Assembly (NCBI GenBank): GCA_032718475.1
Contig: JAUCBJ010007236.1
Location: 1-64,000, forward strand
DNA: 64,000 nucleotides
Source: Nemertoderma westbladi
Lineage: Eukaryota > Animalia > Xenacoelomorpha
Direction: 5' to 3'
Numbering within the stretch: the stretch's first letter is position 1; every line of letters starts with the position of its first letter. The translations under genes and the position numbers were made by a program. Shown here in pieces: positions 38 through 64,000 of the stretch. The notes under the pieces are model-generated. The model did no database searches, was not told the DNA's origin, and saw only the letters and a list, made by a program, of their open reading frames with translations.

Positions 38-3000
38 TTTCATGTAGGAACATAGACCGTGTTTCAGGTAGGAACTTAGACCGTGTTTCAGGTAGGAACA
101 TAGACCTTTTTTCAGCTAGGAACATAGACCGTGTTTTAGGTAGGAACATAGACCGTATTTCAGGTACGAACATAGACCGTTTTTCTGGTAGGAACATAGA
201 CCTTTTTTCACGAAGGAACATAGACCGTGTTTCATGAAGGAACATAGACCGTGTTTCAGGTAGGAACATAAACCGAGTTTCAGGTAGGAACATAGACCGC
301 GTTTCAGGTAGGAACATAGACCGAGTTTTAGGTAGGAACATAGACCGTGTTTCAGGTAGGAACATAGACCGTGTTTCAGGTAGGAACATAGACCGTGTTT
401 CAGGTAGGAACTTAGACCGCGTTTCAGGTAGGAACATAGACCGAGTTTCAGGTAGGAACATAGACCGTGTTTCATGTAGGAACATAGACCGTGTTTCAGG
501 TAGGAACATAGACCGTGTTTCAGGTAGGAACTTAGACCGTGTTTCAGGTAGGAACATAGACCGTGTTTCAGGTAGGAACATAGACCGTGTTTTAGGTAGG
601 AACTTAGATCGCGTTTCAGGTAGGAACATAGACCGAGTTTCAGGTAGGAATATAGCCGTGTTTCATGTAGGAACATACCGTGTTTCAGGTAGGAACATAG
701 ACCGTGTTTCTGGTAGGAACATAGACCGTGTTTCAGGTTGGAACATAGACCGAGTTTCAGGTAGGAACATAGACCTTTTTTTTCAGGTAGGAACATAGAC
801 CGTGTTTCATGTAGGAACATAGACCGTGTTTCAGGTAGGAACATAGACCGTGTTTCAGGTAGGAACATAGACCGAGTTTCAGGTAGGAACATAGCCGTGT
901 TTCATGTAGGAACATACCGTGTTTCAGGTACGAACATAGACCGTGTATCAGGTAGGAACTTAGACCGTGTTTCAGGTAGGAACATAGACCGTGTTTCAGG
1001 TAGGAACATAGACCGTGTTTTAGGTAGGAACTTAGACCGCGTTTCAGGTAGGAACATAGACCGACTTTCATGTAGGAACATAGACCGAGTTTCAGGTAGG
1101 AACATAGCCGTGTTTCAGGTAGGAACATAGACCGTGTTTCAGGTAGGAACATAGACCGTGTTTCATGTAGGAACATGCCGTGTTTCAGGTACGAACATAG
1201 ACCGTGTATCAGGTAGGAACTTAGACCGTGTTTCAGGTAGGAACATAGACCGTGTTTCAGGTAGGAACATAGACCGTGTTTTAGGTAGGAACATAGACCG
1301 CGTTTCAGGTAGGAACATAGACTGAGTTTCAGGTAGGAACATAGACCGTGTTTCAGGTAGGAACATAGACCGTGTTTCAGGTAGGAACATAGACCGTGTT
1401 TCAGGTAGGAACTTAGGCCGCGTTTCAGGTAAGAACATAGACCGAGTTTCAGGTAGGAACATAGACCGTGTTTCATGTAGGAACATAGACCGTGTTTCAG
1501 GTAGGAACATAGACCGTGTTTCAGGTAGGAACTTAGACCGTGTTTCAGGTAGGAACATAGACCGTGTTTCAGGTAGGAACATAGACCGTGTTTTAGGTAG
1601 GAACTTAGACCGCGTTTCAGGTAGGAACATAGACCGAGTTTCAGGTAGGTACATAGACCGAGTTTCAGGTAGGAACATAGACCGTGTTTCATGTAGGAAC
1701 ATAGACCGTGTTTCAGGTAGGAACATAGACCGTGTTTCAGGTAGGAACTTAGACCGTGTTTCAGGTAGGAACATAGACCGTGTTTCAGGTAGGAACATAG
1801 ACCGTGTTTTAGGTAGGAACTTAGACCGCGTTTCAGGTAGGAACATAGACCGAGTTTCAGTTAGGAACATAGCCGTGTTTCATGTAGGATCATACCGTGT
1901 TTCAGGTAGGAACATAGACCGAGTTTCAGGTAGGAACATAGACCCTTTTTCAGGTAGGAACATAGACCGTGTTTCATGTAGGAACATAGACCGTGTTTCA
2001 GGTAGGAACATAGACCGTGTTTCAGGTAGGAACATAGACCGAGTTTCAGGTAGGAACATAGCCGTGTTTCATGTAGGAACATACCGTGTTTCAGGTACGA
2101 ACATAGACCGTGTTTCATGTAGGAACTTAGACCGTGTTTCAGGTAGGAACATAGACCGTGTATCAGGTAGGAACTTAGACCGTGTTTCAGGTAGGAACAT
2201 AGACCGTGTTTCAGGTAGGAACATAGACCGTGTTTTAGGTAGGAACTTAGACCGCGTTTCAGGTAGGAACATAGACCGACTTTCATGTAGGAACATAGAC
2301 CGAGTTTCAGGTAGGAACATAGCCGTGTTTCAGGTAGGAACATAGATCGTGTTTTAGGTAGGAACTTAGACCGCGTTTCAGGTAGGAACATAGACCGACT
2401 TTCATGTAGGAACATAGACCGAGTTTCAGGTAGGAACATAGCCGTGTTTCAGGTAGGAACTTAGACCGTGTTTCAGGTAGGAACATAGACCGTGTTTCAG
2501 GTAGGAACATAGACCGTGTTTTAGGTAGGAACTTAGACCGCGTTTCAGGTAGGAACATAGACCGAGTTTCAGGTAGGATCATAGCCGTGTTTCTGGTAGG
2601 AACATAGACCGTGTTTCAGGTAGGAACATAGACCGAGTTTCTGGTAGGAACATAGACCGTGTTTCAGGTAGGAACATAGACCGAGTTTCAGGTAGGAACA
2701 TAGACCTTTTTTTTCAGGAAGGAACATAGACCGGTTTTCATGTAGGAACATAGACCGTGTTTCAGGTAGGAACATAGACCGTGTTTCAGGTAGGAACATA
2801 GACCGAGTTTCAGGTAGGAACATAGCCGTGTTTCATGTAGGAACATACCGTGTTTCAGGTACGAACATAGACCGTGTATCAGGTAGGAACTTAGACCGTG
2901 TTTCAGGTAGGAACATAGACCGTGTTTCAGGTAGGAACATAGACCGTGTTTTAGGTAGGAACATAGACCGTGTTTCAGGTAGGAACATAGACCGACTTTC

Positions 3001-6000
3001 ATGTAGGAACATAGACCGAGTTTCAGGTAGGAACATACCGTGTTTCAGGTAGGAACATAGACCGTGTTTCAGGTAGGAACATAGACCGTGTTTCATGTAG
3101 GAACATGCCGTGTTTCAGGTATGAACATAGACCGTGTATCAGGTAGGAACTTAGACCGTGTTTCAGGTAGGAACATAGACCGTGTTTTAGGTAGGAACTT
3201 AGACCGCGTTTCAGGTAGGAACATAGACCGAGTTTCAGGTAGGAACATAGCCGTGTTTCATGTAGGAACATACCGTGTTTCAGGTAGGAACATAGACCGT
3301 GTTTCTGGTAGGAACATAGACCGTGTTTCAGGTAGGAACATAGACCGTGTTTCAGGTAGGAACATAGACCGTGTTTCAGGTAGGAACATAGCCGTGTTTC
3401 ATGTAGGAACATACCGTGTTTCAGGTAGGAACATAGACCGTGTTTTAGGTAGGAACTTAGACCGTGTTTCTGGTAGGAACATAGACCGTGTTTTAGGTAG
3501 GAACTTAGACCGCGTTTCAGGTAGGAACATAGACCGAGTTTCAGGTAGGAACATATCCGTGTTTCAGGTAGGAACATACCGTGTTTCTGGTAGGAACATA
3601 GACCGTGTTTCAGGTAGGAACTTAGGCCGTGTTTCAGGTAGGAACATAGACCGAGTTTCAGGTAGGAACATAGCCGTGTTTCATGTAGGAACATACCGTG
3701 TTTCTGGTAGGAACATAGACCGTGTTTCTGGTAGGAACATAGACCGTGTTTCAGGTAGGAACATAGACCGTGTTTCAGGTAGGAACATAGACCGTGTTTC
3801 AGGTAGGAACATAGCCGTGTTTCATGTAGGAACTTAGACCGTGTTTCAGGTAGGAACATAGACCGTGTTTCAGGTAGGAACATAGACCGTGTTTTAGGTA
3901 GGAACTTAGACCGTGTTTCAGGTAGGAACATAGACCGTGTTTCAGGTAGGAACATAGACCGTGTTTTAGGTAGGAACTTAGACCGTGTTTCAGGTAGGAA
4001 CATAGACCGTGTTTCAGGTAGGAACATAGACCGTGTTTCAGGTAGGAACTTAGGCCGTGTTTCAGGTAGGAACATAGACCGAGTTTTAGGTAGGAACATA
4101 GCCGTGTTTCATGTAGGAACATACCGTGTTTCTGGTAGGAACATAGACCGTGTTTCTGGTAGGAACATAGACCGTGTTTCAGGTAGGAACATAGACCGTG
4201 TTCCAGGTAGGAACATAGACCGTGTTTCAGGTAGGAACATAGCCGTGTTTCATGTAGGAACTTAGACCGTGTTTCAGGTAGGAACATAGACCGTGTTTCA
4301 GGTAGGAACATAGACCGTGTTTTAGGTAGGAACTTAGACCGTGTTTCAGGTAGGAACATAGACCGTGTTTCAGGTAGGAACATAGACCGTGTTTTAGGTA
4401 GGAACTTAGACCGTGTTTCAGGTAGGAACATAGACCGTGTTTCAGGCAGGAACATAGACCGAGTTTCAGGTAGGAACATAGACCGTGTTTCAGGTAGGAA
4501 CTTAGACCGTGTTTCAGGTAGGAACATAGACCGTGTTTCAGGTAGGAACATAGACCGTGTTTTAGGTAGGAACTTAGACCGTGTTTCAGGTAGGAACATA
4601 GACCGTGTTTCAGGTAGGAACATAGACCGAGTTTCAGGTAGGAACATAGACCGTGTTTCAGGTAGGAACATAGACCGTGTTTCAGGTAGGAACATAGACC
4701 GTGTTTCAGGTAGGAACATAGACCGTGTTTTAGGTAGGAACTTAGACCGTGTTTCAGGTAGGAACATAGACCGTGTTTCAGGTAGGAACATGGACCGAGT
4801 TTCAGGTAGGAACATAGACCGTGTTTCAGGTAGGAACATAGACCGTGTTTCAGGTAGGAACATAGACCGTGTTTCAGGTAGGAACATAGACCGTGTTTCA
4901 TGAAGGAACATAGACCGTGTTTTAGGTAGGAACATAGACCGTGTTTCTGGTAGGAACATAGACCGAGTTTCTGGTAGGAACATAGACCGTGTTTCAGGTA
5001 GGAACATAGACCGAGTTTCAGGTAGGAACATATACCGAGTTTCTGGTAGGAACATAGACCTTTTTTCAGGTAGGAACATAGACCGAGTTTCAGGTAGGAA
5101 CATAGACCGAGTTTCAGGTAGGAACATAGCCGTGTTTCATGTAGGAATATACCGTGTTTCAGGTAGGAACATAGACCGTGTTTCTGGTAGGAACATAGAC
5201 CGTGTTTCAGGTAGGAACATAGACCGAGTTTCAGGTAGGAACATAGACCTTTTTTCAGGTAGGAACATAGACCGAATTTTAGGTAGGAACATAGACCGTG
5301 TTTCATGTAGGAACATAGACCGTGTTTCAGGTAGGAACATAGACCGTGTTTCAGGTAGGAACTTAGACCGTGTTTCAGGTAGGAACATAGACCGTGTTTC
5401 AGGTAGGAACATAGACCGTGTTTTAGGTAGGAACATAGCCGTGTTTCATGTAGGAACATAGCCGTGTTTCTGGTAGGAACATAGACCGTGTTTCAGGTAG
5501 GAACATAGACCGTGTTTCTGGTAGGAACATAGACCGTGTTTCAGGTAGGAACATAGACCGAGTTTCAGGTAGGAACATAGACCTTTTTTCAGGTAGGAAC
5601 ATAGACCGAATTTTAGGTAGGAACATAGACCGTGTTTCATGTAGGAACATAGACCGTGTTTCAGGTAGGAACTTAGACCGTGTTTCAGGTAGGAACATAG
5701 ACCGTGTTTCAGGTAGGAACATAGACCGTGTTTTAGGTAGGAACTTAGACCGTGTTTCAGGTAGGAACATAGACCGTGTTTCAGGTAGGAACATAGACCG
5801 AGTTTCAGGTAGGAACATAGACCGTGTTTCAGGTAGGAACATAGACCGTGTTTCAGGTAGGAACATAGACCGTGTTTCAGGTAGGAACATAGACCGTGTT
5901 TTAGGTAGGAACTTAGACCGTGTTTCAGGTAGGAACATAGACCGTGTTTCAGGTAGGAACATGGACCGAGTTTCAGGTAGGAACATAGACCGTGTTTCAG

Positions 6001-7440
6001 GTAGGAACATAGACCGTGTTTCAGGTAGGAACATAGACCGTGTTTCAGGTAGGAACATAGACCGTGTTTCATGAAGGAACATAGACCGTGTTTTAGGTAG
6101 GAACATAGACCGTGTTTCTGGTAGGAACATAGACCGAGTTTCTGGTAGGAACATAGACCGTGTTTCAGGTAGGAACATAGACCGAGTTTCAGGTAGGAAC
6201 ATATACCGAGTTTCTGGTAGGAACATAGACCTTTTTTCAGGTAGGAACATAGACCGAGTTTCAGGTAGGAACATAGACCGAGTTTCAGGTAGGAACATAG
6301 CCGTGTTTCATGTAGGAATATACCGTGTTTCAGGTAGGAACATAGACCGTGTTTCTGGTAGGAACATAGACCGTGTTTCAGGTAGGAACATAGACCGAGT
6401 TTCAGGTAGGAACATAGACCTTTTTTCAGGTAGGAACATAGACCGAATTTTAGGTAGGAACATAGACCGTGTTTCATGTAGGAACATAGACCGTGTTTCA
6501 GGTAGGAACATAGACCGTGTTTCAGGTAGGAACTTAGACCGTGTTTCAGGTAGGAACATAGACCGTGTTTCAGGTAGGAACATAGACCGTGTTTTAGGTA
6601 GGAACATAGCCGTGTTTCATGTAGGAACATAGCCGTGTTTCTGGTAGGAACATAGACCGTGTTTCAGGTAGGAACATAGACCGTGTTTCTGGTAGGAACA
6701 TAGACCGTGTTTCAGGTAGGAACATAGACCGAGTTTCAGGTAGGAACATAGACCTTTTTTCAGGTAGGAACATAGACCGAATTTTAGGTAGGAACATAGA
6801 CCGTGTTTCATGTAGGAACATAGACCGTGTTTCAGGTAGGAACATAGACCGTGTTTCAGGTAGGAACATAGACCGTGTTTCTGGTAGGAACATAGACCGT
6901 GTTTCAGGTAGGAACATAGACCGTGTTTTAGGTAGGAACATAGCCGTGTTTCATGTAGGAACATAGCCGTGTTTCTGGTAGGAACATAGACCGAATTTTA
7001 GGTAGGAACATAGACCGTGTTTCATGTAGGAACATAGACCGTGTTTCTGGTAGGAACATAGACCGTGTTTCAGGTAGGAACATAGACCGTGTTTCTGGTA
7101 GGAACATAGACCGTGTTTCAGGTAGGAACATAGACCGTGTTTTAGGTAGGAACATAGCCGTGTTTCATGTAGGAACATAGCCGTGTTTCTGGTAGGAACA
7201 TAGACCGTGTTTCAGGTAGGAACATAGACCGTGTTTCAGGTAGGAACTTAGACCGTGTTTCAGGTAGGAACATAGACCGTGTTTCTGGTAGGAACATAGA
7301 CCGTGTTTCAGGTAGGAACATAGACCGAGTTTCAGGTACGAACATAGACCGAGTTTCAGGTAGGAACATAGACCGTGTTTCAGGTAGGAACATAGGCCGT
7401 GTTTTAGGTAGGAACTTTGACCGTGTTTCTGATAGGAACT
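38..7440 (+). repeat. Intronic 24-bp minisatellite array, consensus GAACATAGACCGTGTTTCAGGTAG, ~310 copies
   Basis: Directly visible tandem unit with recurrent variants (CAT/TAG/CTG for CAG, CTT for CAT, CGAG/CGCG, 22-23-bp deletion units). It decays into unique intron at ~7440. Confidence 0.98.
48..67 (+). CDS. DNAH5: Probable 20-nt dynein microexon (E-H-R-P-C-F-R, phase 0 to 2), which is also the first unit of the 24-bp array
   Basis: Preceded by a pyrimidine tract and acceptor (cttttacaccttctttcatgtag) and followed by AG|GTAGGA. Its phase-2 end joins the phase-2 acceptor at 7609 to give [15 protein letters not shown], which parallels human DNAH5 LPIFRASVTLAIP (recalled). An in-frame TAG at 45-47 prevents a longer exon in this frame. 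Confidence 0.65.
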
Positions 7441-10400
7441 ATTATTATACAGATGGAAGTGTTAAGCAAACGTTAACCTTTGGTTGTTTGGGCGGTGATC
7501 TTCAAAATTATTGGGGTGAACGTGGTCAATGGCTATGGATGCAATGAAAATTGTTATTACTATTTTATCTCAAAGAATAATTAAATGTTTTTAATTGTAC
7601 TTTTATAGAGCTGATGTTACTTTAGAAATACCGTCGATAAACTTGCAACCGAGTTTAGAGGATATTCAACATGCTGTAAATAGAGTGGCCCATTGCATCG
7701 TTGGTGTCAGTAAGGGCGTGGCTCAGGTTGGTTTACTGTTATTATACAGTTTGAACTTAAGACAAAATGTATATATTAAATAATTTTTCAAGAAATATAA
7801 ATTTATGAGATAGGAAGTAGGTTTTAGATCACGATTGAATAAAAATATTATGCTAGAATACGAAGTCAGTATGGGATGTTCATCGTTGCTATTTGTAGTT
7901 CCTATTATCATACTTAGTATTTAATCTTGTAAAGTAATTTTCTCTTTGTTTTCGTTACAACCAACGGAATGGACGGCGGGTTTCTTAAAAGGAAAAAATT
8001 TACATTCCAGTGGAATAAAGACCGCCAGCCACCGGTGCTGGGAGAGCGGAAACCTGCCGAACCAGTCCCAGCGGCGGACCACAGACGGTCGTCTATCCAA
8101 TCAACCGTCAGCGAGGTGGGAGAGGGGACCCGGGTGCGGAAAGTGGAGATTGAGGGCGTCATGGTCAACGTCCATCATCAAACCAAAAACTACTTCAAGT
8201 TAGTTGCGAATAACTACAGGATTGGTTGTTTTTATTTATAGATGATACTGTGTTTAGAGACCGACCGCCCTTGCGGTCTCACAAGTGTGAAGCTATAGAG
8301 ACACATCAATTACTGCGATTGCATTAAGACATTAAGAGTTGGGTTACATTGGGTCATTATATTCAGCAGTTACATATAGTTACGTTATGTTACAATTCCA
8401 GGTCGGTGTCAGAGAACAAGGAAGTGGCCAAACTAGTTTCAGTTCTTTCCAGTTCAATCCAGTCCACAAAGAAAGAAGTCCAGTCGGCTTTGGATCTGTT
8501 CGAAAAATATTCTGGTGAGCCAATGACATACTAAGTCACAATAATGCAGTATGTTAATTTAATGTATTTAATAATGCAGTTTACGGACAGAAAAAGCTAT
8601 AGATGCATTAATTGTTTCACCGGGAGTAATTAGTTGTTTAGAACCGTGGCTGATCGAGCACTGAGCGAAACAGTGTTTGGAACTTAAGGGATACGTGGGT
8701 GTACTTTAAAGCCTATAATATGATTATATCTGATATTATTAGTGTAATATTATTATGGTACACCAATCAGAGCCTACTTTCTAGAATTCCCGTTTAATTT
8801 CCTTAGATTTATGGAATCTTGATCGAGAATCAACTTTGGAGGATTTCCTCAAAGAAAACCCCGAGTTGAACGACTTCCAGGCCAGGATATTCTCTTACAA
8901 AGAGCTCGGACACGTGGTTGCTAGGGAACCAGAGTTCTATGCTGCCGGTGAGTGAAACACTGAAATAACTCTAAGTCACTAATGTGTATTACTGACCACT
9001 AAGGCACCGTTACGTAAGGAAATATACAAAAAAAGCGAACTGGGAATTACCTAATATTACAGAGTGATGCTTTTTTTCTCATATAATAGGATTTATATTA
9101 TAAAATAATTGTATTTTCAGGTCCCATTGCCGTTTTCACTGATAAGATGAAGGTAGCGTTGAAGTCTGAGATGACGGCCTGGGTGAATAGCTACGGTAAA
9201 GCCTGTAACACAAAGTACAGGAATATTATGACTGAAATATTTACGTTCACTGAGGATATAGGCAAACGCCTTAGTCGTCCCATAAAGGACCTAGACGATA
9301 TTCGGTTGGCTATGGCGGCGTTGAAGAGTTTAAGGAGAGAGGAGATCCGAATTGATATGTCGCTGTCTCCAATAGAGGAATCCTACGCCATGCTCACCAA
9401 GTTCGTACCGTTTTAGTAATAATAATCTTTGGCACCATATTTTTTAACACCTAACTTCTCTTTGTATACAAAAAAGTCTAAATTTGTAAATAAATTAAGA
9501 AGTGTGAAAAAGATGAGGTCATTAAATAATTAGCCTTTTATTGAACATTGTTATAGTCCGCATGAAAGTAATAAGTCTTACAAAGTATGATCAGAATGCA
9601 GGGTGTGAGTGATATGAAAATTATTATCTAAAATAATATAATGATAATGATAATGAAAATTATCTTAGAAAAATTATCATCTGAAAATTATCTAATGTCA
9701 CTTTCTGCATATATTTAATTTAATTTATTAAAATACAAACTACCGGAACCAATACTAAAGTTCTCTCTCTATATCGCCCCCCCCCCCCCCTCCCCCCCAC
9801 CCTCTCTCTCTTTCTTGAATAAAGGTCACAGAATGATATACTTAAATGTTAACAGATTAATGTGTCTATCCTCCCTTAGATACGATCTCCATGTAGCGAA
9901 AGAGGAGTTAGAAAAGGTTGATACTCTACGATACTCATGGGACAAACTCCAAGTTCAAGCCGTCAATGTCCAGAACCATTTGGTCGACATCCAACCCAAC
10001 TTCAAGGGTTCCCTCATAGACAACGTCAAGTCCTTGATAGTCGATTCCGCTACTTTCTACGACACCTACAAATCGAAGGGCCCTATGGTGGCGGGACTGC
10101 ACCCTAGAGACGCCAGCGACAGATTACTCGTGTTCCAGAACCAGTTCGATACGCTCCACCGTCGTTTCATCACCTACACCGGAGGAGAGGAGCTGTTTGG
10201 TCTTCCAGTTACCGACTTCCCGGAACTACAAACCGTTAAGAAAGAACTCAACCTCCTGCAACGTCTCTACATGCTCTATAACAGCGTTATCGACACTGTG
10301 AACAGCTACTATGATATTCCTTGGAATGAGATAGACATTGAGAAGATTAACAACGAGCTTACCGAATTCCAGAATCGTTGTAGGAAGTTGCCGAAAGCTT

Positions 10401-13400
10401 TGAAAGACTGGCAGGCCTTTGAAGATCTTAAATCCACTATAGATAATTTCAACGATTCTTGCCCACTCCTCGAAATGATGTCGAACAAGTCGATGAAACC
10501 GAGGCATTGGGAGAGAATCACCGACTTAACCGGACATACCTTCGACGTAGAAAGCGATAACTTTCTTCTCAGGAATGTCATGGAAGCTCCCTTGCTTGAG
10601 CACCGTGAGGATCTAGAAGATATTTGCATAGCCGCTGTCAAGGAGAAGGATATAGAGGCTAAACTAAAGCAGGTCATTGCTGAGTGGAGTGTTCAAGTGT
10701 TGAATTTCGGTGGGTTTAAGAATCGAGGTGAACTTTTGTTGAAGGGCGACACAATCACAGATGTTACCGTGCTCATGGAGGACAGTCTCATGGTATTGAG
10801 CTCGTTGCTAAGTAACCGTTATAATGCGCCGTTTAAGAAGAAAATCCAGCAGTGGGTCCATAACCTTAGCAACACTCAGGATATTATAGAGAATTGGATG
10901 GTCGTGCAGAATCTTTGGGTCTACCTGGAGGCCGTGTTTGTGGGTGGTGACATCGCGAAACAGCTGCCCAAGGAAGCGAAACGTTTCCACAACATCGATA
11001 AATCTTGGGTTAAGATAATGACCCGCGCACATGAGACTCCCAACGTGGTTCAGTGTTGCGTCGGTGACGAGACTTTGGGGCAGCTGCTGCCGCATTTGTT
11101 GGACCAGCTGGAACAGTGCCAGAAGAGTCTCACTGGATACCTCGAGAAAAAACGTTTGTTGTTTCCACGGTTTTTCTTTGTTTCAGATCCCGCCCTTCTA
11201 GAAATTCTAGGCCAGGCTTCCGATTCCCACACTATTCAAAACCATTTACTTTCAGTATTCGATAATACTAAGAACGTGAAGTTTCACGAAAAGGACTACG
11301 ATAGAATTCTGGCGATAATGTCGTCGGAAGGAGAGTCGGTAGAACTTGAGAAACCGGTGAAAGCCGAAGGTAATGTGGAGTCATGGTTGAATGACCTCAT
11401 GTTGATGGCCCAGAAATCGTTGCACGGAGTCATTAGAACCGCTGCCTTATCCATACAGGACCAAAACTTTAATCTCATTGAGTTTTTGAATGCTTTCCCC
11501 ACCCAAGTTGGTTTGCTCGGTATTCAGATGCTCTGGACTCGCGATTCGACCGAGGCTCTTACAAACGCCCGCTTCGATAAGAAGGTTATGGCGCAGACCA
11601 ACCAGGCCTTCCTCGATCTCCTCAACACCCTCATTAGTGTGACAACTCAAAACTTAGCGAAATTCGAGAGGACAAAATTCGAAACTATGATAACTATTCA
11701 TGTACATCAAAAGGATATTTTCGATGACATGTGCCGTTTGCACATCCGAACACCGAACGATTTTGAGTGGACAAAACAGTCGCGGTTTTATTACATTGAA
11801 GACACTGACAAAATGTTGATTTCTATTACTGATGTGGATTTCCATTACCAGAACGAGTTTCTCGGTTGTACTGATCGATTGGTTATAACTCCTCTCACAG
11901 ATCGGTGTTACATCACTCTTTCTCAGGCGCTGCATATGAGTATGGGCGGAGCTCCGGCGGGGCCAGCTGGTACCGGTAAAACCGAAACCACGAAGGACAT
12001 GGCCAGATGCCTCGGAAAATACGTCGTTGTTTTCAATTGCTCCGATCAAATGGATTACCGGGGTTTGGGTCGGATCTACAAGGGTTTGGCTCAGTCCGGC
12101 AGTTGGGGTTGTTTCGACGAGTTTAACCGAATTGAGCTACCCGTATTGTCAGTAGCAGCACAACAAATCGCTATAGTACTGACTGCCAAAAAGGAACGCA
12201 AGAAAGAATTTATCTTCTCCGATGGCGATATCGTAGAGCTGAGCCCAGAATTCGGTATCTTTTTGACAATGAACCCCGGATACGCCGGGCGCCAGGAGCT
12301 GCCCGAAAATTTAAAAATAAATTTTAGAACTGTGGCCATGATGGTGCCAGATAGGCAAATTATTATTCGGGTAAAACTAGCAGCTGCTGGGTTTGTAGAG
12401 AATATTATATTAGCTAGAAAGTTCTACGTTTTGTACAAATTGTGCGAAGAGCAACTTTCTAAACAAGTTCATTATGATTTTGGATTGAGAAATATCTTAT
12501 CCGTGTTAAGAACTCTGGGAACTGTTAAACGTGCTAACCCCAATGACACAGAGAACACCATTGTTATGAGAGTTCTCAGAGATATGAATCTCTCAAAACT
12601 TATCGATGAAGATGAACCACTGTTTATGTCTCTGATCAATGATCTGTTCCCAGGAATAGTCCTTGATAAGGCCGGATACCCAGAGCTGGAAGGCGCCATA
12701 GGGAAGCACATCGAAGAATCTGGATTGGTCCACCACCCTGCTTGGTTTCTCAAAGTCATTCAGCTGTTTGAGACGCAGCGTGTGCGTCACGGTATGATGG
12801 CCTTAGGGCCTTCTGGCGCAGGGAAGACCTGTTGCATTCATGTATTGATGAAAGCCATGACAGAGTGTGGCGAGCCTCACAAAGAAATGCGTATGAACCC
12901 CAAGGCTATAACCGCCTCTCAGATGTTCGGCCGGTTGGATGTGGCCACCAATGATTGGACTGATGGTATATTCTCTACCTTATGGCGGCGCACCCACAAG
13001 GTTAAAAAGGGAGACCATGTATGGCTGCTACTTGATGGACCAGTTGATGCGATCTGGATTGAGAACTTGAACTCAGTTCTGGACGATAACAAGACGCTTA
13101 CTTTGGCTAATGGTGACCGGATACCAATGGCACCTAATTGTAAAATCATTTTTGAGCCCCACAATATCGATAACGCCTCCCCTGCCACGGTGTCTCGTAA
13201 TGGAATGGTGTTCATGAGCTCCTCGGTTTTAGACTGGGATCCCATCATTAGAGGCTGGTTGAAGAAACGGAATGAGCAGGAATCCAGCATTCTCTATGAG
13301 TTATTCAAGAATTCCTTCTTTAAAGCTTGGATTTTTGCCAGCGAACACTTGGAATTTAAGATGGATGTACTGGAGGCATTTGTCGTTGGTCAGTGTTCGA

Positions 13401-23181: not shown

Positions 23182-23499
23182 ACTATATTAAACTGCCATT
23201 GGATGTCATGGCAACTTCCTGACATACATTATTTATAAATCATATTATCATGTTAATTATTTGTAATTGTAAAGTTTAATTTATTATGTAAACAATAGGT
23301 TCTGATTTTGATCCGTGGTATGATTACGCAATGTATAAGGTGTAAAGTATTCTGAAAAGTTTATATAACGATGTCTTAAACTGTTTATAAATTTCCAGCG
23401 TTGTATTTTATGTTATAAAGTCTGACAGAATTACTATAATTATTTTTGTATCCTAATTATTACTTTATTGTTTCCAATACTTTTTTTACTACTTCTGTG

Positions 23500-24636: not shown

Positions 24637-24837
24637 CTATAACGACTGCGGTGTATATCTATCAGTAAACCTTTCTAACGCTGTTCTGATATGTTGGGGT
24701 TGGTAGAAACTCCATTTCTGGAACGCAGAGTTTCTATCGCAGGGCCGCAGTTCGAGCGGCGAGGTGAGCGGCTTGTGAGAGTCGTCGCCCGTAAACGTAA
24801 GGCACTCGTGAGTCACCGCGTGAATAAACTGTCGCGT
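24637..24837 (-). CDS. Last coding exon of a ricin-B (beta-trefoil) lectin-domain protein, probably a polypeptide N-acetylgalactosaminyltransferase (GALNT family)
   Basis: Acceptor tgtattttatag| then TRQFIHAVTHECLTFTGDDSHKPLTSPLELRPCDRNSAFQKWSFYQPQHIRTALERFTDRYTPQSL*. It shows the IH....CL, L..C.....QKW (QxW) pattern and is GC-richer than its flanks. It is absent from the ORF track because it has no start codon. Confidence 0.75.
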   Translation of the reverse strand, partial: TRQFIHAVTHECLTFTGDDSHKPLTSPLELRPCDRNSAFQKWSFYQPQHIRTALERFTDRYTPQSL

Positions 24838-25109
24838 CTATAAAATACAATTATCGTAAACGAATTCCAGAATATCTCTGCTGAAACATATTTTCTTCAA
24901 CAATAATTAATTCAGTATACTGAGAAATGTATAAATTCGAAATTGTTTTTATTTGTGGCTAAATAATTACATTCAAAAAAGGTTTTTAGTTATGAGTTAA
25001 TGGCGCAAAATGATCGCTAACACCAACATCTATGTGTTTAGTGGAATTAAAAATTTAAATTTGTAATTTAAAATGTTAAGGAGTTAACATTTTACGTTAA
25101 CATCCTACA

Positions 25110-52100: not shown

Positions 52101-55100
52101 CCTACGTGGTTCCCTACCTCGGTATTTATTCTCCACTCCTGGTTCCCTACCTCGGTATTTATTCTCCACTCCTGGTTCCCTACCTCGGTATTTATTCTCC
52201 TACGTGGTTCCCTACCTCGGTATTTATTCTCCTACGTGGTTCCCTACCTCGGTATTTATTCTCCACTCCTGGTTCCCTACCTCGGTATTTATTCTCCACT
52301 CCTGGTTCCCTACCTCGGTATTTATTCTCCTACGTGGTTCCCTACCTCGGTATTTATTCTCCTACGTGGTTCCCTACCTCGGTATTTATTCTCCACTCCT
52401 GGTTCCCTACCTCGGTATTTATTCTCCACTCCTGGTTCCCTACCTCGGTATTTATTCTCCACTCCTGGTTCCCTACCTCGGTATTTATTCTCCTACGTGG
52501 TTCCCTACCTCGGTATTTATTCTCCACTCTGGTTCCATATCTCGGTATTTATTCTCCACCCTGGTTCCCTACCTCGGTATTTATTCTCCACCCTGGTTCC
52601 CTACCTCGGTATTTATTCTCCACTCCTGGTTCCCTACCTCGGTATTTATTCTCCACTCCTGGTTCCCTACCTCGGTATTTATTCTCCACTCCTGGTTCCC
52701 TACCTCGGTATTTATTCTCCTACGTGGTTCCCTACCTCGGTATTTATTCTCCTACGTGGTTCCCTACCTCGGTATTTATTCTCCACCCTGGTTCCCTACC
52801 TCGGTATTTATTCTCCACTCCTGGTTCCCTACCTCGGTATTTATTCTCCACCCTGGTTCCCTACGTCGGTATTTATTCTCCTACGTGGTTCCCTACCTCG
52901 GTATTTATTCTCCTACGTGGTTCCCTACCTCGGTATTTATTCTCCACCCTGGTTCCCTACCTCGGTATTTATTCTCCACTCCTGGTTCCCTACCTCGGTA
53001 TTTATTCTCCACTCTGGTTCCCTACCTCGGTATTTATTCTCCTTCGTGGTTCCCTACCTCGGTATTTATTCTCCACTCTGGTTCCCTACCTCGGTATTTA
53101 TTCTCCACTCCTGGTTCCCTACGTCGGTATTTATTCTCCTACGTGGTTCCCTACCTCGGTATTTATTCTCCTACGTGGTTCCCTACCTCGGTATTTATTC
53201 TCCACTCTGGTTCCCTACCTCGGTATTTATTCTCCACTCTGGTTCCCTACCTCGGTATTTATTCTCCTACGTGGTTCCCTACCTCGGTATTTATTCTCCT
53301 ACGTGGTTCCCTACCTCGGTATTTATTCTCCACTCTGGTTCCCTCCTACCTCGGTATTTATTCTCCACTCCTGGTTCCCTCCTACCTCGGTATTTATTCT
53401 CCACTCTGGTTCCCTACCTCGGTATTTATTCTCCACTCCTGGTTCCCTCCTACCTCGGTATTTATTCTCCACCCTGGTTCCCTACCTCGGTATTTATTCT
53501 CCACCCTGGTTCCCTACCTCGGTATTTATTCTCCACTCCTGGTTCCCTACCTCGGTATTTATTCTCCACTTTGGTTCCCTACCTCGGTATTTATTCTCCA
53601 CCCTGGTTCCCTACCTCGGTATTTATTCTCCACTCCTGGTTCCCTACCTCGGTATTTATTCTCCACTCTGGTTCCCTACCTCGGTATTTATTCTCCTTCG
53701 TGGTTCCCTACCTCGGTATTTATTCTCCACTCTGGTTCCCTACCTCGGTATTTATTCTCCACTCCTGGTTCCCTACGTCGGTATTTATTCTCCTACGTGG
53801 TTCCCTACCTCGGTATTTATTCTCCTACGTGGTTCCCTACCTCGGTATTTATTCTCCACTCTGGTTCCCTACCTCGGTATTTATTCTCCACTCTGGTTCC
53901 CTACCTCGGTATTTATTCTCCTACGTGGTTCCCTACCTCGGTATTTATTCTCCTACGTGGTTCCCTACCTCGGTATTTATTCTCCACCCTGGTTCCCTAC
54001 CTCGGTATTTATTCTCCACTCTGGTTCCCTACCTCGGTATTTATTCTCCTACGTGGTTCCCTACCTCGGTATTTATTCTCCACCCTGGTTCCCTACCTCG
54101 GTATTTATTCTCCACCCTGGTTCCCTACCTCGGTATTTATTCTCCACTCATGGTTCCCTACCTCGGTATTTCTTCTCCACTCTGGTTCCCTACCTCGGTA
54201 TTTATTCTCCACTCCTGGTTCCCTACCTCGGTATTTATTCTCCACTCCTGGTTCCCTACCTCGGTATTTATTCTCCTACGTGGTTCCCTACCTCGGTATT
54301 TATTCTCCACCCTGGTTCCCTACCTCGGTATTTATTCTCCACTCCTGGTTCCCTACCTCGGTATTTATTCTCCTACGTGGTTCCCTACCTCGGTATTTAT
54401 TCTCCACCCTGGTTCCCTACCTCGGTATTTATTCTCCACTCCTGGTTCCCTACCTCGGTATTTATTCTCCACCCTGGTTCCCTACCTCGGTATTTATTCT
54501 CCACTCCTGGTTCCCTACCTCGGTATTTATTCTCCTACGTGGTTCCCTACCTCGGTATTTATTCTCCACCCTGGTTCCCTACCTCGGTATTTATTCTCCA
54601 CTCCTGGTTCCCTACCTCGGTATTTATTCTCCTACGTGGTTCCCTACCTCGGTATTTATTCTCCACCCTGGTTCCCTACCTCGGTATTTATTCTCCACCC
54701 TGGTTCCCTACCTCGGTATTTATTCTCCACTCCTGGTTCCCTACCTCGGTATTTATTCTCCACCCTGGTTCCCTACGTCGGTATTTATTCTCCTACGTGG
54801 TTCCCTACCTCGGTATTTATTCTCCTACGTGGTTCCCTACCTCGGTATTTATTCTCCTACGTGGTTCCCTACCTCGGTATTTATTCTCCACCCTGGTTCC
54901 CTACCTCGGTATTTATTCTCCTACGTGGTTCCCTACCTCGGTATTTATTCTCCACCCTGGTTCCCTACCTCGGTATTTATTCTCCACCCTGATTCCCTAC
55001 CTCGGTATTTATTCTCCACCCTGGTTCCCTACCTCGGTATTTATTCTCCACTCCTGGTTCCCTACCTCGGTATTTATTCTCCACTCTGGTTCCCTCCTAC

Positions 55101-58100
55101 CTCGGTATTTATTCTCCACTCTGGTTCCCTACCTCGGTATTTATTCTCCACTCTGGTTCCCTACCTCGGTATTTATTCTCCACTCCTGGTTCCCTACCTC
55201 GGTATTTATTCTCCACTCCTGGTTCCCTACCTCGGTATTTATTCTCCACCCTGGTTCCCTACGTCGGTATTTATTCTCCTACGTGGTTCCCTACCTCGGT
55301 ATTTATTCTCCACCCTGGTTCCCTACCTCGGTATTTATTCTCCACCCTGGTTCCCTACCTCGGTATTTATTCTCCACTCCTGGTTCCCTACCTCGGTATT
55401 TATTCTCCACTCCTGGTTCCCTACCTCGGTATTTATTCTCCTACGTGGTTCCCTACCTCGGTATTTATTCTCCACCCTGGTTCCCTACCTCGGTATTTAT
55501 TCTCCACCCTGGTTCCCTACCTCGGTATTTATTCTCAACTCTGGTTCCCTACCTCGGTATTTATTCTCCACCCTGGTTCCCTACCTCGGTATTTATTCTC
55601 CACTCCTGGTTCCCTACCTCGGTATTTATTCTCCACTCCTGGTTCCCTACCTCGGTATTTATTCTCCACCCTGGTTCCCTACGTCGGTATTTATTCTCCT
55701 ACGTGGTTCCCTACCTCGGTATTTATTCTCCACCCTGGTTCCCTACCTCGGTATTTATTCTCCACCCTGGTTCCCTACCTCGGTATTTATTCTCCACTCC
55801 TGGTTCCCTACCTCGGTATTTATTCTCCACTCCTGGTTCCCTACCTCGGTATTTATTCTCCTACGTGGTTCCCTACCTCGGTATTTATTCTCCACCCTGG
55901 TTCCCTACCTCGGTATTTATTCTCCACCCTGGTTCCCTACCTCGGTATTTATTCTCCACTCTGGTTCCCTACCTCGGTATTTATTCTCCACTCTGGTTCC
56001 CTACCTCGGTATTTATTCTCCACCCTGGTTCCCTACCTCGGTATTTATTCTCCACCCTGGTTCCCTACGTCGGTATTTATTCTCCTACGTGGTTCCCTAC
56101 CTCGGTATTTATTCTCCTACGTGGTTCCCTACCTCGGTATTTATTCTCCACCCTGGTTCCCTACCTCGGTATTTATTCTCCACTCTGGTTCCCTATCTCG
56201 GTATTTATTCTCCACCCTGGTTCCCTACCTCGGTATTTATTCTCCACCCTGGTTCCCTACCTCGGTATTTATTCTCCACTCCTGGTTCCCTACCTCGGTA
56301 TTTATTCTCCTACGTGGTTCCCTACCTCGGTATTTATTCTCCACTCTGGTTCCCTACCTCGGTATTTATTCTCCACCCTGGTTCCCTACCTCGGTATTTA
56401 TTCTCCACTCCTGGTTCCCTCCTACCTCGGTATTTATTCTCCACCCTGGTTCCCTACCTCGGTATTTATTCTCCACTCTGGTTCCCTACCTCGGTATTTA
56501 TTCTCCTACGTGGTTCCCTACCTCGGTATTTATTCTCCTACGTGGTTCCCTACCTCGGTATTTATTCTCCACTCCTGGTTCCCTACCTCGGTATTTATTC
56601 TCCACCCTGGTTCCCTACCTCGGTATTTATTCTCCACCCTGGTTCCCTACCTCGGTATTTATTCTCCACCCTGGTTCCCTACCTCGGTATTTATTCTCCA
56701 CTCCTGGTTCCCTACCTCGGTATTTATTCTCCACCCTGGTTCCCTACCTCGGTATTTATTCTCCACCCTGGTTCCCTACCTCGGTATTTATTCTCCACCC
56801 TGGTTCCCTACCTCGGTATTTATTCTCCACCCTGGTTCCCTACCTCGGTATTTATTCTCCACCCTCGTTCCCTACCTCGGTATTTATTCTCCACCCTGGT
56901 TCCCTACCTCGGTATTTATTCTCCACTCCTGGTTCCCTACCTCGGTATTTATTCTCCTACGTGGTTCCCTACCTCGGTATTTATTCTCCTTCGTGGTTCC
57001 CTACCTCGGTATTTATTCTCCACTCCTGGTTCCCTACCTCGGTATTTATTCTCCACTCCTGGTTCCCTACCTCGGTATTTATTCTCCACTCTGGTTCCCT
57101 ACCTCGATATTTATTCTCCACTCCTGGTTCCCTACCTCGGTATTTATTCTCCACTCATGGTTCCCTACCTCGGTATTTATTCTCCACTCCTGGTTCCCTA
57201 CACCTCGGTATTTACTCTCCACCCTGGTTCCCTACCTCGGTATTTATTCTCCTTCCTGGTTCCCTACCTCGGTATTTATTCTCCACCCTGGTTCCCTACC
57301 TCGGTATTTATTCTCCTACGTGGTTCCCTACCTCGGTATTTATTCTCCTACGTGGTTCCCTACCTCGGTATTTATTCTCCACCCTGGTTCCCTACCTCGG
57401 TATTTATTCTCCACCCTGGTTCCCTACCTCGGTATTTATTCTCCTACGTGGTTCCCTACCTCGGTATTTATTCTCCACCCTGGTTCCCTACCTCGGTATT
57501 TATTCTCCACCCTGGTTCCCTACCTCGGTATTTATTCTCCACTCCTGGTTCCCTACCTCGGTATTTATTCTCCACTCCTGGTTCCCTACCTCGGTATTTA
57601 TTCTCCACTCCTGGTTCCCTACCACGGTATTTATTCTCCTCTCCGGGTTCCCTACCTCGGTATTTATTCTCCACCCTGGTTCCCTACCTCGGTATTTATT
57701 CTCCACTCCTGGTTCCCTACCTCGGTATTTATTCTCCACTCTGGTTCCCTACCTCGGTATTTATTCTCCTACGTGGTTCCCTACCTCGGTATTTATTCTC
57801 CACTCTGGTTCCCTACCTCGGTATTTATTCTCCACTCCTGGTTCCCTCCTACCTCGGTATTTATTCTCCACCCTGGTTCCCTACCTCGGTATTTATTCTC
57901 CACCCTGGTTCCTACCTCGGTATTTATTCTCCTACGTGGTTCCCTACCTCGGTATTTATTCTCCACTCTGGTTCCCTACCTCGGTATTTATTCTCCACCC
58001 TGGTTCCCTACCTCGGTATTTATTCTCCTACGTGGTTCCCTACCTCGGTATTTATTCTCCACTCTGGTTCCCTACCTCGGTATTTATTCTCCACTCCTGG

Positions 58101-61100
58101 TTCCCTACCTCGGTATTTATTCTCCACCCTGGTTCCCTACCTCGGTATTTATTCTCCACCCTGGTTCCCTCCTACCTCGGTATTTATTCTCCACCCTGGT
58201 TCCCTACCTCGGTATTTATTCTCCACCCTGGTTCCCTCCTACCTCGGTATTTATTCTCCACTCTGGTTCCCTACCTCGGTATTTATTCTCCACCCTGGTT
58301 CCCTCCTACCTCGGTATTTATTCTCCACCCTGGTGCCCTACCTCGGTATTTATTCTCCTACGTGGTTCCCTACCTCGGTATTTATTCTCCACTCTGGTTC
58401 CCTACCTCGGTATTTATTCTCCACTCATGGTTCCCTACCTCGGTATTTATTATCCACCCTGGTTCCCTACCTCGGTATTTATTCTCCACCCTGGTTCCCT
58501 GCCTCGGTATTTATTCTCCACCCTGGTTCCCTACCTCGGTATTTATTCTCCACCCTGGTTCCCTACCTCGGTATTTATTCTCCACTCCTGGTTCCCTACC
58601 TCGGTATTTATTATCCACCCTGGTTCCCTACCTCGGTATTTATTCTCCACCCTGGTTCCCTGCCTCGGTATTTATTCTCCACCCTGGTTCCCTACCTCGG
58701 TATTTATTCTCCACCCTGGTTCCCTACCTCGGTATTTATTCTCCACTCTGGTTCCCTACCTCGGTATTTATTCTCCACTCTGGTTCCCTACCTCGGTATT
58801 TATTATCCTCCCTGGTTCCCTACCTCGGTATTTATTCTCCACTCATGGTTCCCTACCTCGGTATTTATTCTCCACTCCTGGTTCCCTACCTCGGTATTTA
58901 TTCTCCTACGTGGTTCCCTACCTCGGTATTTATTCTCCACTTCTGGTTCCCTACCTCGGTATTTATTCTCCACTCCTGGTTCCCTACCTCGGTATTTATT
59001 CTCCACTCCTGGTTCCCTACCTCGGTATTTATTCTCCACTCCTGGTTCCCTACCTCGGTATTTATTCTCCACCCTGGTTCCCTACCTCGGTATTTATTCT
59101 CCACCCTGGTTCCCTACCTCGGTATTTATTCTCCACCCTGGTTCCCTACCTCGGTATTTATTCTCCACTCCTGGTTCCCTACCTCGGTATTTATTCTCCA
59201 CCCTGGTTCCCTACCACGGTATTTATTCTCCTCTCCGGGTTCCCTACCTCGGTATTTATTCTCCACCCTGGTTCCCTACCTCGGTATTTATTCTCCACTT
59301 CTGGTTCCCTACCTCGGTATTTATTCTCCTACGTGGTTCCCTACCTCGGTATTTATTCTCCACTCCTGGTTCCCTACCTCGGTATTTATTCTCCACTACT
59401 GGTTCCCTCCTACCTCGGTATTTATTCTCCACTCCTGGTTCCCTACCACGGTATTTATTCTCCTCTCCGGGTTCCCTACCTCGGTATTTATTCTCCACCC
59501 TGGTTCCCTCCTACCTCGGTATTTATTCTCCACCCTGGTTCCCTACCTCGATATTTATTCTCCACCCTGGTTCCCTACCTCGGTATTTATTCTCCACCCT
59601 GGTTCCCTACCTCGGTATTTATTCTCCACCCTGGTTCCCTATCTCGGTATTTATTCTCCTCTCCGGGTTCCCTACCTCGGTATTTATTCTCCACCCTGGT
59701 TCCCTCCTACCTCGGTATTTATTCTCCACCCTGGTTCCCTACCTCGATATTTATTCTCCACCCTGGTTCCCTACCTCGGTATTTATTCTCCTCTCCGGGT
59801 TCCCTACCTCGGTATTTATTCTCCACCCTGGTTCCCTACCTCGGTATTTATTCTCCACTTCTGGTTCCCTACCTCGGTATTTATTCTCCACCCTGGTTCC
59901 CTACCTCGGTATTTATTCTCCTCTCCGGGTTCCCTACCTCGGTATTTATTCTCCACCCTGGTTCCCTCCTACCTCGGTATTTATTCTCCACCCTGGTTCC
60001 CTACCTCGGTATTTATTCTCCACTCTGGTTCCCTACCTCGGTATTTATTCTCCTTCCTGGTTCCCTACCTCGGTATTTATTCTCCTACGTGGTTCCCTAC
60101 CTCGGTATTTATTCTCCACCCTGGTTCCCTACCTCGGTATTTATTCTCCACCCTGGTTCCCTACCTCGGTATTTATTCTCCTTCCTGGTTCCCTACCTCG
60201 GTATTTATTCTCCACCCTGGTTCCCTACCTCGGTATTTATTCTCCTTCGTGGTTCCCTACCTCGGTATTTATTCTCCTTCGTGGTTCCCTACCTCGGTAT
60301 TTATTCTCCACCCTGGTTCCCTGCCTCGGTATTTATTCTCCACCCTGGTTCCCTACCTCGGTATTTATTCTCCACCCTGGTTCCCTACCTCGGTATTTAT
60401 TCTCCACCCTGGTTCCCTACCTCGGTATTTATTCTCCTACGTGGTTCCCTACCTCGGTATTTATTCTCCACCCTGGTTCCCTACCTCGGTATTTATTCTC
60501 CACCCTGGTTCCCTCCTACCTCGGTATTTATTCTCCACCCTGGTTCCCTCCTACCTCGGTATTTATTCTCCACTCTGGTTCCCTACCTCGATATTTATTC
60601 TCCACCCTGGTTCCCTACCTCGGTATTTATTATCCTCCCTGGTTCCCTACCTCGGTATTTATTCTCCACTTCTGGTTCCCTACCTCGGTATTTATTCTCC
60701 TACGTGGTTCCCTACCTCGGTATTTATTCTCCACTCCTGGTTCCCTACCTCGGTATTTATTCTCCACTACTGGTTCCCTCCTACCTCGGTATTTATTCTC
60801 CACTCCTGGTTCCCTACCACGGTATTTATTCTCCTCTCCGGGTTCCCTACCTCGGTATTTATTCTCCACCCTGGTTCCCTCCTACCTCGGTATTTATTCT
60901 CCACCCTGGTTCCCTACCTCGATATTTATTCTCCACCCTGGTTCCCTACCTCGGTATTTATTCTCCACCCTGGTTCCCTACCTCGGTATTTATTCTCCAC
61001 CCTGGTTCCCTATCTCGGTATTTATTCTCCTCTCCGGGTTCCCTACCTCGGTATTTATTCTCCACCCTGGTTCCCTCCTACCTCGGTATTTATTCTCCAC

Positions 61101-64000
61101 CCTGGTTCCCTACCTCGATATTTATTCTCCACCCTGGTTCCCTACCTCGGTATTTATTCTCCTCTCCGGGTTCCCTACCTCGGTATTTATTCTCCACCCT
61201 GGTTCCCTACCTCGGTATTTATTCTCCACTTCTGGTTCCCTACCTCGGTATTTATTCTCCACCCTGGTTCCCTACCTCGGTATTTATTCTCCTCTCCGGG
61301 TTCCCTACCTCGGTATTTATTCTCCACCCTGGTTCCCTCCTACCTCGGTATTTATTCTCCACCCTGGTTCCCTACCTCGGTATTTATTCTCCACTCTGGT
61401 TCCCTACCTCGGTATTTATTCTCCTTCCTGGTTCCCTACCTCGGTATTTATTCTCCTACGTGGTTCCCTACCTCGGTATTTATTCTCCACCCTGGTTCCC
61501 TACCTCGGTATTTATTCTCCACCCTGGTTCCCTACCTCGGTATTTATTCTCCTTCCTGGTTCCCTACCTCGGTATTTATTCTCCACCCTGGTTCCCTACC
61601 TCGGTATTTATTCTCCTTCGTGGTTCCCTACCTCGGTATTTATTCTCCTTCGTGGTTCCCTACCTCGGTATTTATTCTCCACCCTGGTTCCCTGCCTCGG
61701 TATTTATTCTCCACCCTGGTTCCCTACCTCGGTATTTATTCTCCACCCTGGTTCCCTACCTCGGTATTTATTCTCCACCCTGGTTCCCTACCTCGGTATT
61801 TATTCTCCTACGTGGTTCCCTACCTCGGTATTTATTCTCCACCCTGGTTCCCTACCTCGGTATTTATTCTCCACCCTGGTTCCCTCCTACCTCGGTATTT
61901 ATTCTCCACCCTGGTTCCCTCCTACCTCGGTATTTATTCTCCACTCTGGTTCCCTACCTCGATATTTATTCTCCACCCTGGTTCCCTACCTCGGTATTTA
62001 TTCTCCTCTCCTGGTTCCCTACCTCGGTATTTATTCTCCACTCCTGGTTCCCTACCTCGGTATTTATTCTCCACCCTGGTTCCCTACCTCGGTATTTATT
62101 CTCCTACGTGGTTCCCTACCTCGGTATTTATTCTCCACCCTGGTTCCCTACCTCGGTATTTATTCTCCACTTCTGGTTCCCTACCTCGGTATTTATTCTC
62201 CACTTCTGGTTCCCTACCTCGGTATTTATTCTCCACTCCTGGTTCCCTACCTCGGTATTTATTCTCCACTCTGGTTCCCTACCTCGGTATTTATTATCCA
62301 CCCTGGTTCCCTACCTCGGTATTTATTCTCCACCCTGGTTCCCTCCTACCTCGGTATTTATTCTCCACCCTGGTTCCCTACCTCGGTATTTATTCTCCAC
62401 TCCTGGTTCCCTACACCTCGGTATTTACTCTCCACCCTGGTTCCCTACCTCGGTATTTATTCTCCTTCCTGGTTCCCTACCTCGGTATTTATTCTCCTAC
62501 GTGGTTCCCTACCTCGGTATTTATTCTCCACCCTGGTTCCCTACCTCGGTATTTATTCTCCACCCTGGTTCCCTACCTCGGTATTTACTCTCCACCCTGG
62601 TTCCCTACCTCGGTATTTATTCTCCTTCCTGGTTCCCTACCTCGGTATTTATTCTCCTACGTGGTTCCCTACCTCGGTATTTATTCTCCACCCTGGTTCC
62701 CTACCTCGGTATTTATTCTCCACTCCTGGTTCCCTACACCTCGGTATTTACTCTCCACCCTGGTTCCCTACCTCGGTATTTATTCTCCTTCCTGGTTCCC
62801 TACCTCGGTATTTATTCTCCACCCTGGTTCCCTACCTCGGTATTTATTCTCCACCCTGGTTCCCTACCTCGGTATTTATTCTCCACTCTGGTTCCCTACC
62901 TCGGTATTTATTCTCCACCCTGGTTCCCTCCTACCTCGGTATTTATTCTCCACCCTGGTTCCCTACCTCGGTATTTATTCTCCACTCCTGGTTCCCTACA
63001 CCTCGGTATTTACTCTCCACCCTGGTTCCCTACCTCGGTATTTATTCTCCACCCTGGTTCCCTCCTACCTCGGTATTTATTCTCCACCCTGGTTCCCTAC
63101 CTCGTTATTTATTCTCCACTCTGGTTCCCTACCTCGGTATTTATTCTCCTTCCTGGTTCCCTACCTCGGTATTTATTCTCCTACGTGGTTCCCTACCTCG
63201 GTATTTATTCTCCACTCTGGTTCCCTACCTCGGTATTTATTCTCCACCCTCGTTCCCTACCTCGGTATTTATTCTCCACTCATGGTTCCCTCCTACCTCG
63301 GTATTTATTCTCCACTCCTGGGTCCCTACCTCGGTATTTATTCTCCACCCTGGTTCCCTACCTCGGTATTTATTCTCCACCCTGGTTCCCTACCTCGGTA
63401 TTTATTCTCCACTCTGGTTCCCTACCTCGGTATTTATTCTCCACCCTGGTTCCCTACCTCGGTATTTATTCTCCACTCCTGGTTCCCTACCTCGGTATTT
63501 ATTCTCCACCCTGGTTCCCTACCTCGGTATTTATTCTCCACCCTGGTTCCCTACCTCGGTATTTATTCTCCACCCTGGTTCCCTACCTCGGTAGTTATTC
63601 TCCACCCTGGTTCCCTACCTCGGTATTTATTCTCCACCCTGGTTCCCTACCTCGGTATTTATTCTCCACCCTGGTTCCCTACCTCGGTATTTATTCTCCA
63701 CTCCTGGTTCCCTACCACGGTATTTATTCTCCTCTCCGGGTTCCCTACCTCGGTATTTATTCTCCACCCTGGTTCCCTACCTCGGTATTTATTCTCCACC
63801 CTGGTTCCCTACCTCGGTATTTATTCTCCACCCTGGTTCCCTACCTCGGTATTTATTCTCCACTCCTGGTTCCCTACCACGGTATTTATTCTCCTCTCCG
63901 GGTTCCCTACCTCGGTATTTATTCTCCACCCTGGTTCCCTACCTCGGTATTTATTCTCCACCCTGGTTCCCTACCCCGGTATTTATTCTCCACCCTGGTT
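25110..64000 (-). repeat. Giant (>38.9 kb, runs off the window) 32-36-bp minisatellite in the last intron of the minus-strand gene; sense-strand unit GTAGGGAACCAGG(A)GTGGAGAATAAATACCGAG, ~1,200 copies
   Basis: Directly visible. Near-invariant core TTCCCTACCTCGGTATTTATTCTCC (+ strand) and a small set of interspersed variants (ACCCTGG, ACTCCTGG, ACTCTGG, TACGTGG, TCTCCGGG, and a +CCT insertion). Confidence 0.99.

Follow-up and report, generated by a model that had tools for sequence, protein, structure and literature searches.

Tandem repeats spanning exon–intron boundaries were described in lancelets and termed 'mirages'. They are found in Adh3, the globin genes BflGb6 and BflGb9, TnC and PGBD5, were suggested to be a general feature of lancelets, and are reported not to disturb splicing (PMC3087553, PMC3902484). 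Here we analyze a stretch of 64,000 nucleotides (the window) of contig JAUCBJ010007236.1 from Nemertoderma westbladi, in which three tandem arrays fill introns of two genes, arrays 1 and 2 in an axonemal dynein heavy chain gene and array 3 in a second gene (gene 2) with a lectin-type domain. The three arrays are probably splice-donor minisatellites of the mirage kind, that is, duplications of an exon end and its 5′ splice site (donor) which grew by ordinary turnover and were tolerated through use of the first donor.

In human genes, donor-spanning variable number tandem repeats (VNTRs) are present in intervening sequence (IVS) 7 of F7 (37 bp, 5–9 copies), IVS13 of CBS (15–20 copies), 6-16 (25 pseudo-sites), LMNB2 and PDGF, the source quoting five donor-side cases besides F7; in F7 only the most upstream of the 5–9 identical donors is used (PMC1557585). 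In the Rogers model, tandem duplication of AG|GT proto-splice sites is a route of intron gain (PMC3087553). The introns of the Drosophila Y-linked genes kl-3 and kl-5 contain megabases of simple satellites, e.g. (AATAT)n, and have a dedicated expression programme (PMC6508621). The cited sections of PMC12783039 and PMC10078293 describe no junction-derived arrays, and no genome-wide account of donor-born satellites was found in the openly licensed literature.

Like the lancelet mirages, the present arrays consist of tandem units that lie over an exon–intron boundary (directly so in array 2, putatively in arrays 1 and 3) and duplicate its AG/GT signals, affect several loci in one lineage, and have unit lengths within the quoted range of 10–160 bp. 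They differ in copy number, with 3–6 copies quoted for BflGb6 against ~310 and ~1,200 here, and in placement, since mirages include acceptor-side units whereas all three arrays here are donor-centred. Nor is the host a lancelet; its dynein is 73% identical to Branchiostoma DNAH5 and lies on a long, unplaced branch. In the human VNTRs the exon–intron boundary lies within the first monomer, and the donor is repeated into the intron by the copies that follow, which is also the anatomy of array 2. Arrays 1 and 3, however, exceed them in length by one to two orders of magnitude, with only 2–6 intron bases per unit, three cases occur here within 64 kb, and in the human genes donor use was measured. 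What sets this locus apart is the scale, ~1,160 donor copies compared with 3–25 in the cited reports, and the density, 3 of 12 local donors.

The first-pass annotation of the window regarded this type of array as undescribed, which is contradicted by the lancelet (PMC3087553, PMC3902484) and human (PMC1557585) reports quoted above. Its parallel with intron gain does not hold for array 2. An AG|GT-containing segment is duplicated, as in the Rogers model, but here each intron has retained a unique tail with its own acceptor, and 19 of 24 related dynein loci share the position of the array-2 intron. Array 2 therefore represents intron growth, not intron gain. The parallel with kl-3/kl-5 is correct in that an axonemal dynein heavy chain gene has a satellite-filled intron, yet the analogy is loose. 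The cited sections on Drosophila describe megabase-scale simple satellites and do not describe them as exon-derived (PMC6508621), whereas here 7.4 kb of a 24-bp, putatively exon-derived unit is in view and the largest array sits in the non-dynein gene.

Structure of the three arrays

Arrays were called by Tandem Repeats Finder in the 64-kb window; other evidence came from homologues and a few public runs, among them X1, X2 and X4. All three are of the head-to-tail minisatellite type with 91–95% matches. The annotated coordinates, periods and copy numbers were reproduced, and the two host genes on opposite strands, the dynein gene (+) and the lectin-domain gene (−), were recovered (Table 1). 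The arrays had been called unrelated, and indeed all that array 1 has in common with array 3 is a donor-centred stretch of 10 nt with GTAGG, matched by 338 of 5,000 shuffles and not significant. The GTAGG motif is absent from the ten other dynein donors and present in array 1 (44–67) and in array-3 units. Each of the three introns retains a unique 3′ tail and its own acceptor.

The array-1 unit is made of 20 nt, read as EHRPCF with the initial two bases of an R codon, and then GTAG. It had been stated that every unit ends in exon codons and AG|GT. Many do, but AG|GT sites number 238 in the ~305–310 units of array 1, 12 in array 2 and 1,163 in array 3, and the peptide NQEWRINTE is in frame on the sense strand in 310 of the 1,147 donor-ending units of array 3, with the longer GGNQEWRINTE in 31. 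Array 3 comprises 77 unit types, among which frameshifting 32-mers account for 742 of 1,184 units. It also contains exact block duplications of 40 units at lag 42 (near 60600–61971), 25 units at lag 278 and 22 units at lag 168; the duplicated blocks at 60600–61971 and 31181–40283 may reflect higher-order organization or have arisen in assembly.

Against the U1 consensus, the copied donors mostly agree at 6–7 of 9 positions, as the real donors do, so they are probably not silenced by weakness. The GC content of the array units is 46–48%, compared with 45% in exons, 33% in introns and 32% in the intergenic stretch. The sense strands of arrays 1, 2 and 3 are G-skewed (+0.26, +0.30 and +0.48), but three of nine unamplified donors show comparable skew, which therefore does not single out the amplified ones. 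The three-tier G-quadruplex motif has no match in array 3, and the two-tier motif has 831.

Origin of the repeat units

The array-2 unit spans an exon end and its donor. It starts 28 nt before the donor at 20476|20477 and consists of 28 exon nucleotides and 18 intron nucleotides. The join across the array is aligned in 119 of 120 homologues, in which DARIPxxWxK runs straight into the peptide of the next exon; the direct exon overlap reported for this array is thus borne out. Use of the second donor would lead to a stop within eight codons. A spliced contig of run X4 extends 1,151 nt past 20448, where the first-donor route needs 568 nt to the stop; this agrees with normal splicing but does not show the junction. 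Related dynein loci were taken from metagenome contigs; of 24, 19 have a GT at the intron position, ten of these with the next exon and an AG also visible, and five lack the intron there. None of the 24 has an array over the orthologous donor. Because the intron position is common to 19 of the 24 loci, the array-2 intron predates its array.

For array 1, the exon downstream of the array (at 7609) is aligned by all 120 homologues, and the seven residues preceding it are typically DSRPFFR, DHRPFFR or similar. Among 48 readings of the unit, differing in frame and rotation, EHRPCFR scores highest (12.4, against 5.9 for the runner-up), and its score is reached in any reading by 134 of 20,000 shuffled units. 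This reading also ends in AG|GT with the phase required by the downstream acceptor, in agreement with the annotated in-frame continuation, EHRPCF-R|ADVTL. The second donor would bring an immediate stop. Contigs of two studies, one run of which may be the source, reach only 52–54 bases upstream of 7440, as expected of short-read contigs that stop at a real repeat.

For array 3, the join GNQEWRINTE|TRQFIH is in frame with the next exon, as had been claimed, and places the QxW motif and the following Cys at the lectin spacing of 16. Of 20,000 shuffles, 66 yielded a QxW at a fitting spacing together with an open frame and a phase-0 GT. When 68 candidates were scored with a lectin profile, the ten best scores all came from the sense in-frame reading of array 3. 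The unique tail of the intron begins GTAT-GTAGGA, and among the unit junctions GTAGGA occurs 78 times and GTGTAG four times, which is consistent with an origin at the start of the gene-2 intron itself. Since GTATGT and a normal tail of 275 nt come after the last unit, the old intron start would lie at the far end of the array. We infer that the units of arrays 1 and 3 derive from exon ends. The claim that the arrays grew from the exon end and donor of their own hosts is accordingly supported, directly for array 2 and by homology for the other two.

Table 1. Arrays and associated features in the 64-kb window
Feature	Position	Strand	Description
Array 1	38..7439	+	24-bp unit, 310.6 copies; dynein intron
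Array 2	20449..21026	+	46-bp unit, 12.5 copies; 12 donor copies; dynein intron
Array 3	25110..64000, beyond window end	−	32/33/35/36-bp units, 1,195.9 copies (32-bp period); gene-2 intron
First full copy of 20-nt exon-like piece	48..67	+	Candidate micro-exon with acceptor candidate 25–47, or first unit following a break in the array
Unique 3′ tail and acceptor, array-1 intron	7440..7608	+	3′ end of the array-1 intron
Dynein gene, DNAH5-like outer-arm heavy chain	7609..23181	+	11 exons in view; homology and full dynein domain set
Exon of 9,163 nt	9880..19042	+	Covers most of the dynein motor
Dynein exon upstream of array 2	20324..20476	+	Final 28 nt form the exon portion of the array-2 unit
Unique 3′ tail and acceptor, array-2 intron	21027..21122	+	Intron position common to other animals
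Terminal coding exon of gene 2 with ricin-B-type lectin repeat	24637..24837	−	PF00652, E 4.6e-5, below gathering score
Unique tail of gene-2 intron, 275 nt	24838..25112	−	Starts with intact GTATGT donor, ends with AG acceptor

Formation and tolerance of the arrays

The seed of such an array would be a short tandem duplication of an exon end and the first bases of an existing intron. By analogy with F7 and the lancelet genes, the spliceosome would keep using the first donor, and a donor-spanning duplication would then be nearly neutral. Growth may then have proceeded by slippage and unequal exchange, as suggested by the mixed unit types and the kilobase-scale block duplications. Minisatellite seeds richer in GC may expand more readily. 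If they do, selection would most likely spare those GC-richer, exon-derived seeds that carry a donor at their end, and the donor bias may then need no special machinery. Tolerance of first-donor duplications together with ordinary array growth is likely to suffice.

Several points weigh against this explanation. No source exon was seen for array 1 or array 3, and no splice junction over any of the three arrays was observed, the X4 run being without cover at 7440–8741 and reads having been placed up to 20448. Array 1 is preceded by 37 unique nucleotides, and bases 1–47 are closed in the EHRPCFR frame by a stop at 45–47. In array 3, the spacing of 16 recurs in 17 of the 22 lectin repeats of the homologues P0123 and P0124, but 12 of these 17 belong to one internally duplicated protein. 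The exact array-3 join ranks second-equal in the lectin profile (20.1 bits, against 21.9 for the best candidate and 16.5 for the exon alone), so that the profile supports the frame more than the cut site. In gene 2 it is the last donor, >39 kb away from the exon, that looks best (7 of 9 positions, judged by eye). Evidence for the first-donor rule comes from 5–9 copies in mammalian cells, compared with ~1,200 here, and the rule is not universal, as the human 6-16 and CBS genes use two pseudo-sites as well (PMC1557585). The argument from GC-rich seeds draws on three arrays and on general knowledge of minisatellites.

Because bases 1–47 are closed in frame, the source of array 1 is either a 20-nt micro-exon at 48–67 or an exon upstream of the window. 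It is a fair question whether the whole micro-exon, with its acceptor and donor, was amplified, which would refine the donor-duplication account and is compatible with it; we hold this to be possible, though somewhat doubtful. Besides the closed frame, AG and GT flank each array-1 unit, and positions 25–37 contain 11 pyrimidines of 13, compared with 2–10 at 11 real dynein acceptors; 3 of 173 intronic AGs are as good. On the other hand, 150 of 3,736 intronic 13-mers are equally pyrimidine-rich, positions 38–47 are the same as a frequent variant of the unit, CAT being the ending of 38 units, so that the AG may belong to the array, and array 1 may be interrupted and resume upstream of the window. 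A very different possibility is that the donor ladders are functional, giving rise to alternative or decay-targeted transcripts or serving as recursive-splicing points for removal of the giant introns. In array 1, 187 copies have a pyrimidine-AG directly before GT, the 33- or 36-nt units of array 3 (370 of 1,184, ~31%) would add 11–12 residues in frame, some human cases use two pseudo-sites (PMC1557585), and in duplicated human genes repeats at exon boundaries can change how a transcript is spliced, including by creating alternative forms (PMC2812944). Yet the units are decaying so that donors and frames break, the array-3 sense strand is 75% purine with no pyrimidine tract, and the orthologous array-2 donor is without an array in 19 other loci; such a function is very improbable. 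An accidental exon fit, in which arrays 1 and 3 would be dispersed satellites with no relation to the exons or repeats inflated by the assembly, seems more improbable still. That their source exons were not seen leaves room for it, and the exact 40-unit block at lag 42 could be an assembly effect. It is opposed by the rarity of equally good fits among the shuffled units of both arrays, by the fact that both units end in a donor with the right phase on the right strand, and by the array-3 tail, which starts with the donor itself, as well as by the 77 unit types of array 3 and by the short-read contigs that stop at array 1 in two studies, with the reservation that one run may be the source.

Frequency of arrays at splice donors

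The donor-duplication account treats the three arrays as products of ordinary turnover. A further question is whether a lineage-wide process coupled to transcription or splicing, such as R-loop formation or fragility at U1 sites, seeds arrays at 5′ splice sites, with most large intronic satellites being donor-born. Of the 12 donors of the window three carry an array, and all three arrays are donor-centred, for which the rough chance is 1.5e-4, a value biased by the window having been picked for this coincidence. In the dynein loci of 24 other animals, no array lay over any of 78 alignment ends on the donor side or 73 on the acceptor side (Fisher p 0.002), a figure biased by the comparison loci being short-read contigs that break at arrays and are mutually non-independent. 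Two flagged ends in these loci were rejected, one lying at a stop codon and the other starting inside an intron. The sense-strand G-skew of all three arrays fits the R-loop idea, and the lancelet authors also propose a lineage-wide tendency (PMC3087553). Nevertheless, this is a single, selected window, and three of nine unamplified donors are comparably skewed. Among the ten fully visible dynein introns, a donor copy is found in one and an acceptor copy in none, the best match of the nine others being 10–12 of 20. Tolerance accounts for the pattern with no new process, and we regard the lineage-wide process as unlikely. Of the mechanisms that the first-pass annotation had offered, harmlessness by spliceability has an experimental precedent, whereas R-loops and U1-site fragility gain no specific support here.

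A bolder conjecture, which we consider doubtful, is that splice donors are the main birthplace of large satellites in this lineage, that their units repeatedly reach tens of kilobases, and that giant introns with >1,000 skipped, functional-looking donors result. If this were true, the genome would offer a natural series for the study of 5′ splice-site choice and of the origin of satellite DNA. Genome-wide enrichment of donor-born arrays, if found, would tie the tolerance of splice sites to the birth of satellites and the lengthening of introns. The gene-2 intron in itself, with at least ~1,160 near-identical donors of which the best-matching is the last, would put the first-donor (oriented scanning) rule to a stringent natural test. 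It is also rare that the birthplace of a satellite can be read from its own sequence, as it can here.

Host genes and neighbouring sequences

The homologues of the dynein gene are DNAH5-like proteins of many animals, with 72–75% identity. The joined model has 3,617 residues with no internal stop and is 73% identical to P0002. In a tree of 19 rows, built with 18 of the 120 homologues, the host lies on a long unplaced branch and not beside the lancelet. The ten introns with both ends visible measure 173–765 nt, in line with the 0.2–0.8 kb annotated for local introns. A contig from X4, a run labelled 'DNA?', skips 436 and 686 nt at GT..AG, corresponding to two dynein introns; the dynein gene is therefore transcribed and spliced. 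In the related loci of other animals, the part compared is divided into many short exons, whereas here 9880–19042 is a single exon, which suggests that the central part of the gene has lost many introns.

Gene 2 was examined through its last coding exon. The Atlas neighbours of this exon are ricin-type lectins, weak and below the recognition threshold, and its PDB matches are weak hits to plant lectin chains (E 0.05 or worse). A word-index protein search with the exon gave no match. A HMMER search gave five, of which two (P0123 and P0124) contain true lectin repeats; the other three were spurious repeat proteins and were dropped. Judging by the GGNQxW motif, gene 2 may be GALNT-like, a name that does not come from a database call; no GALNT orthologue was retrieved.

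Between 7440 and 9420, many intron bases of the window are different in X1 (e.g. 14 in 585 nt), and fewer in X2, which suggests a polymorphic species. The C-run tracts at 9776–9807 and 19309–19330, both in dynein introns, draw many short contigs with false joints in the runs.

A 591-nt element occupies 19680–20270 on the minus strand of a dynein intron. It starts with TC, ends with CTAG after a GC hairpin and is inserted between A and T. A TC start, a CTAG end after a hairpin and A/T insertion are the hallmarks of Helitrons. In X1 the summed contig depth over the element is ~69,500, compared with 14–77 in the flanking unique bins, and many different flanks are seen at 19678–19679. The element is likely a high-copy non-autonomous Helitron.

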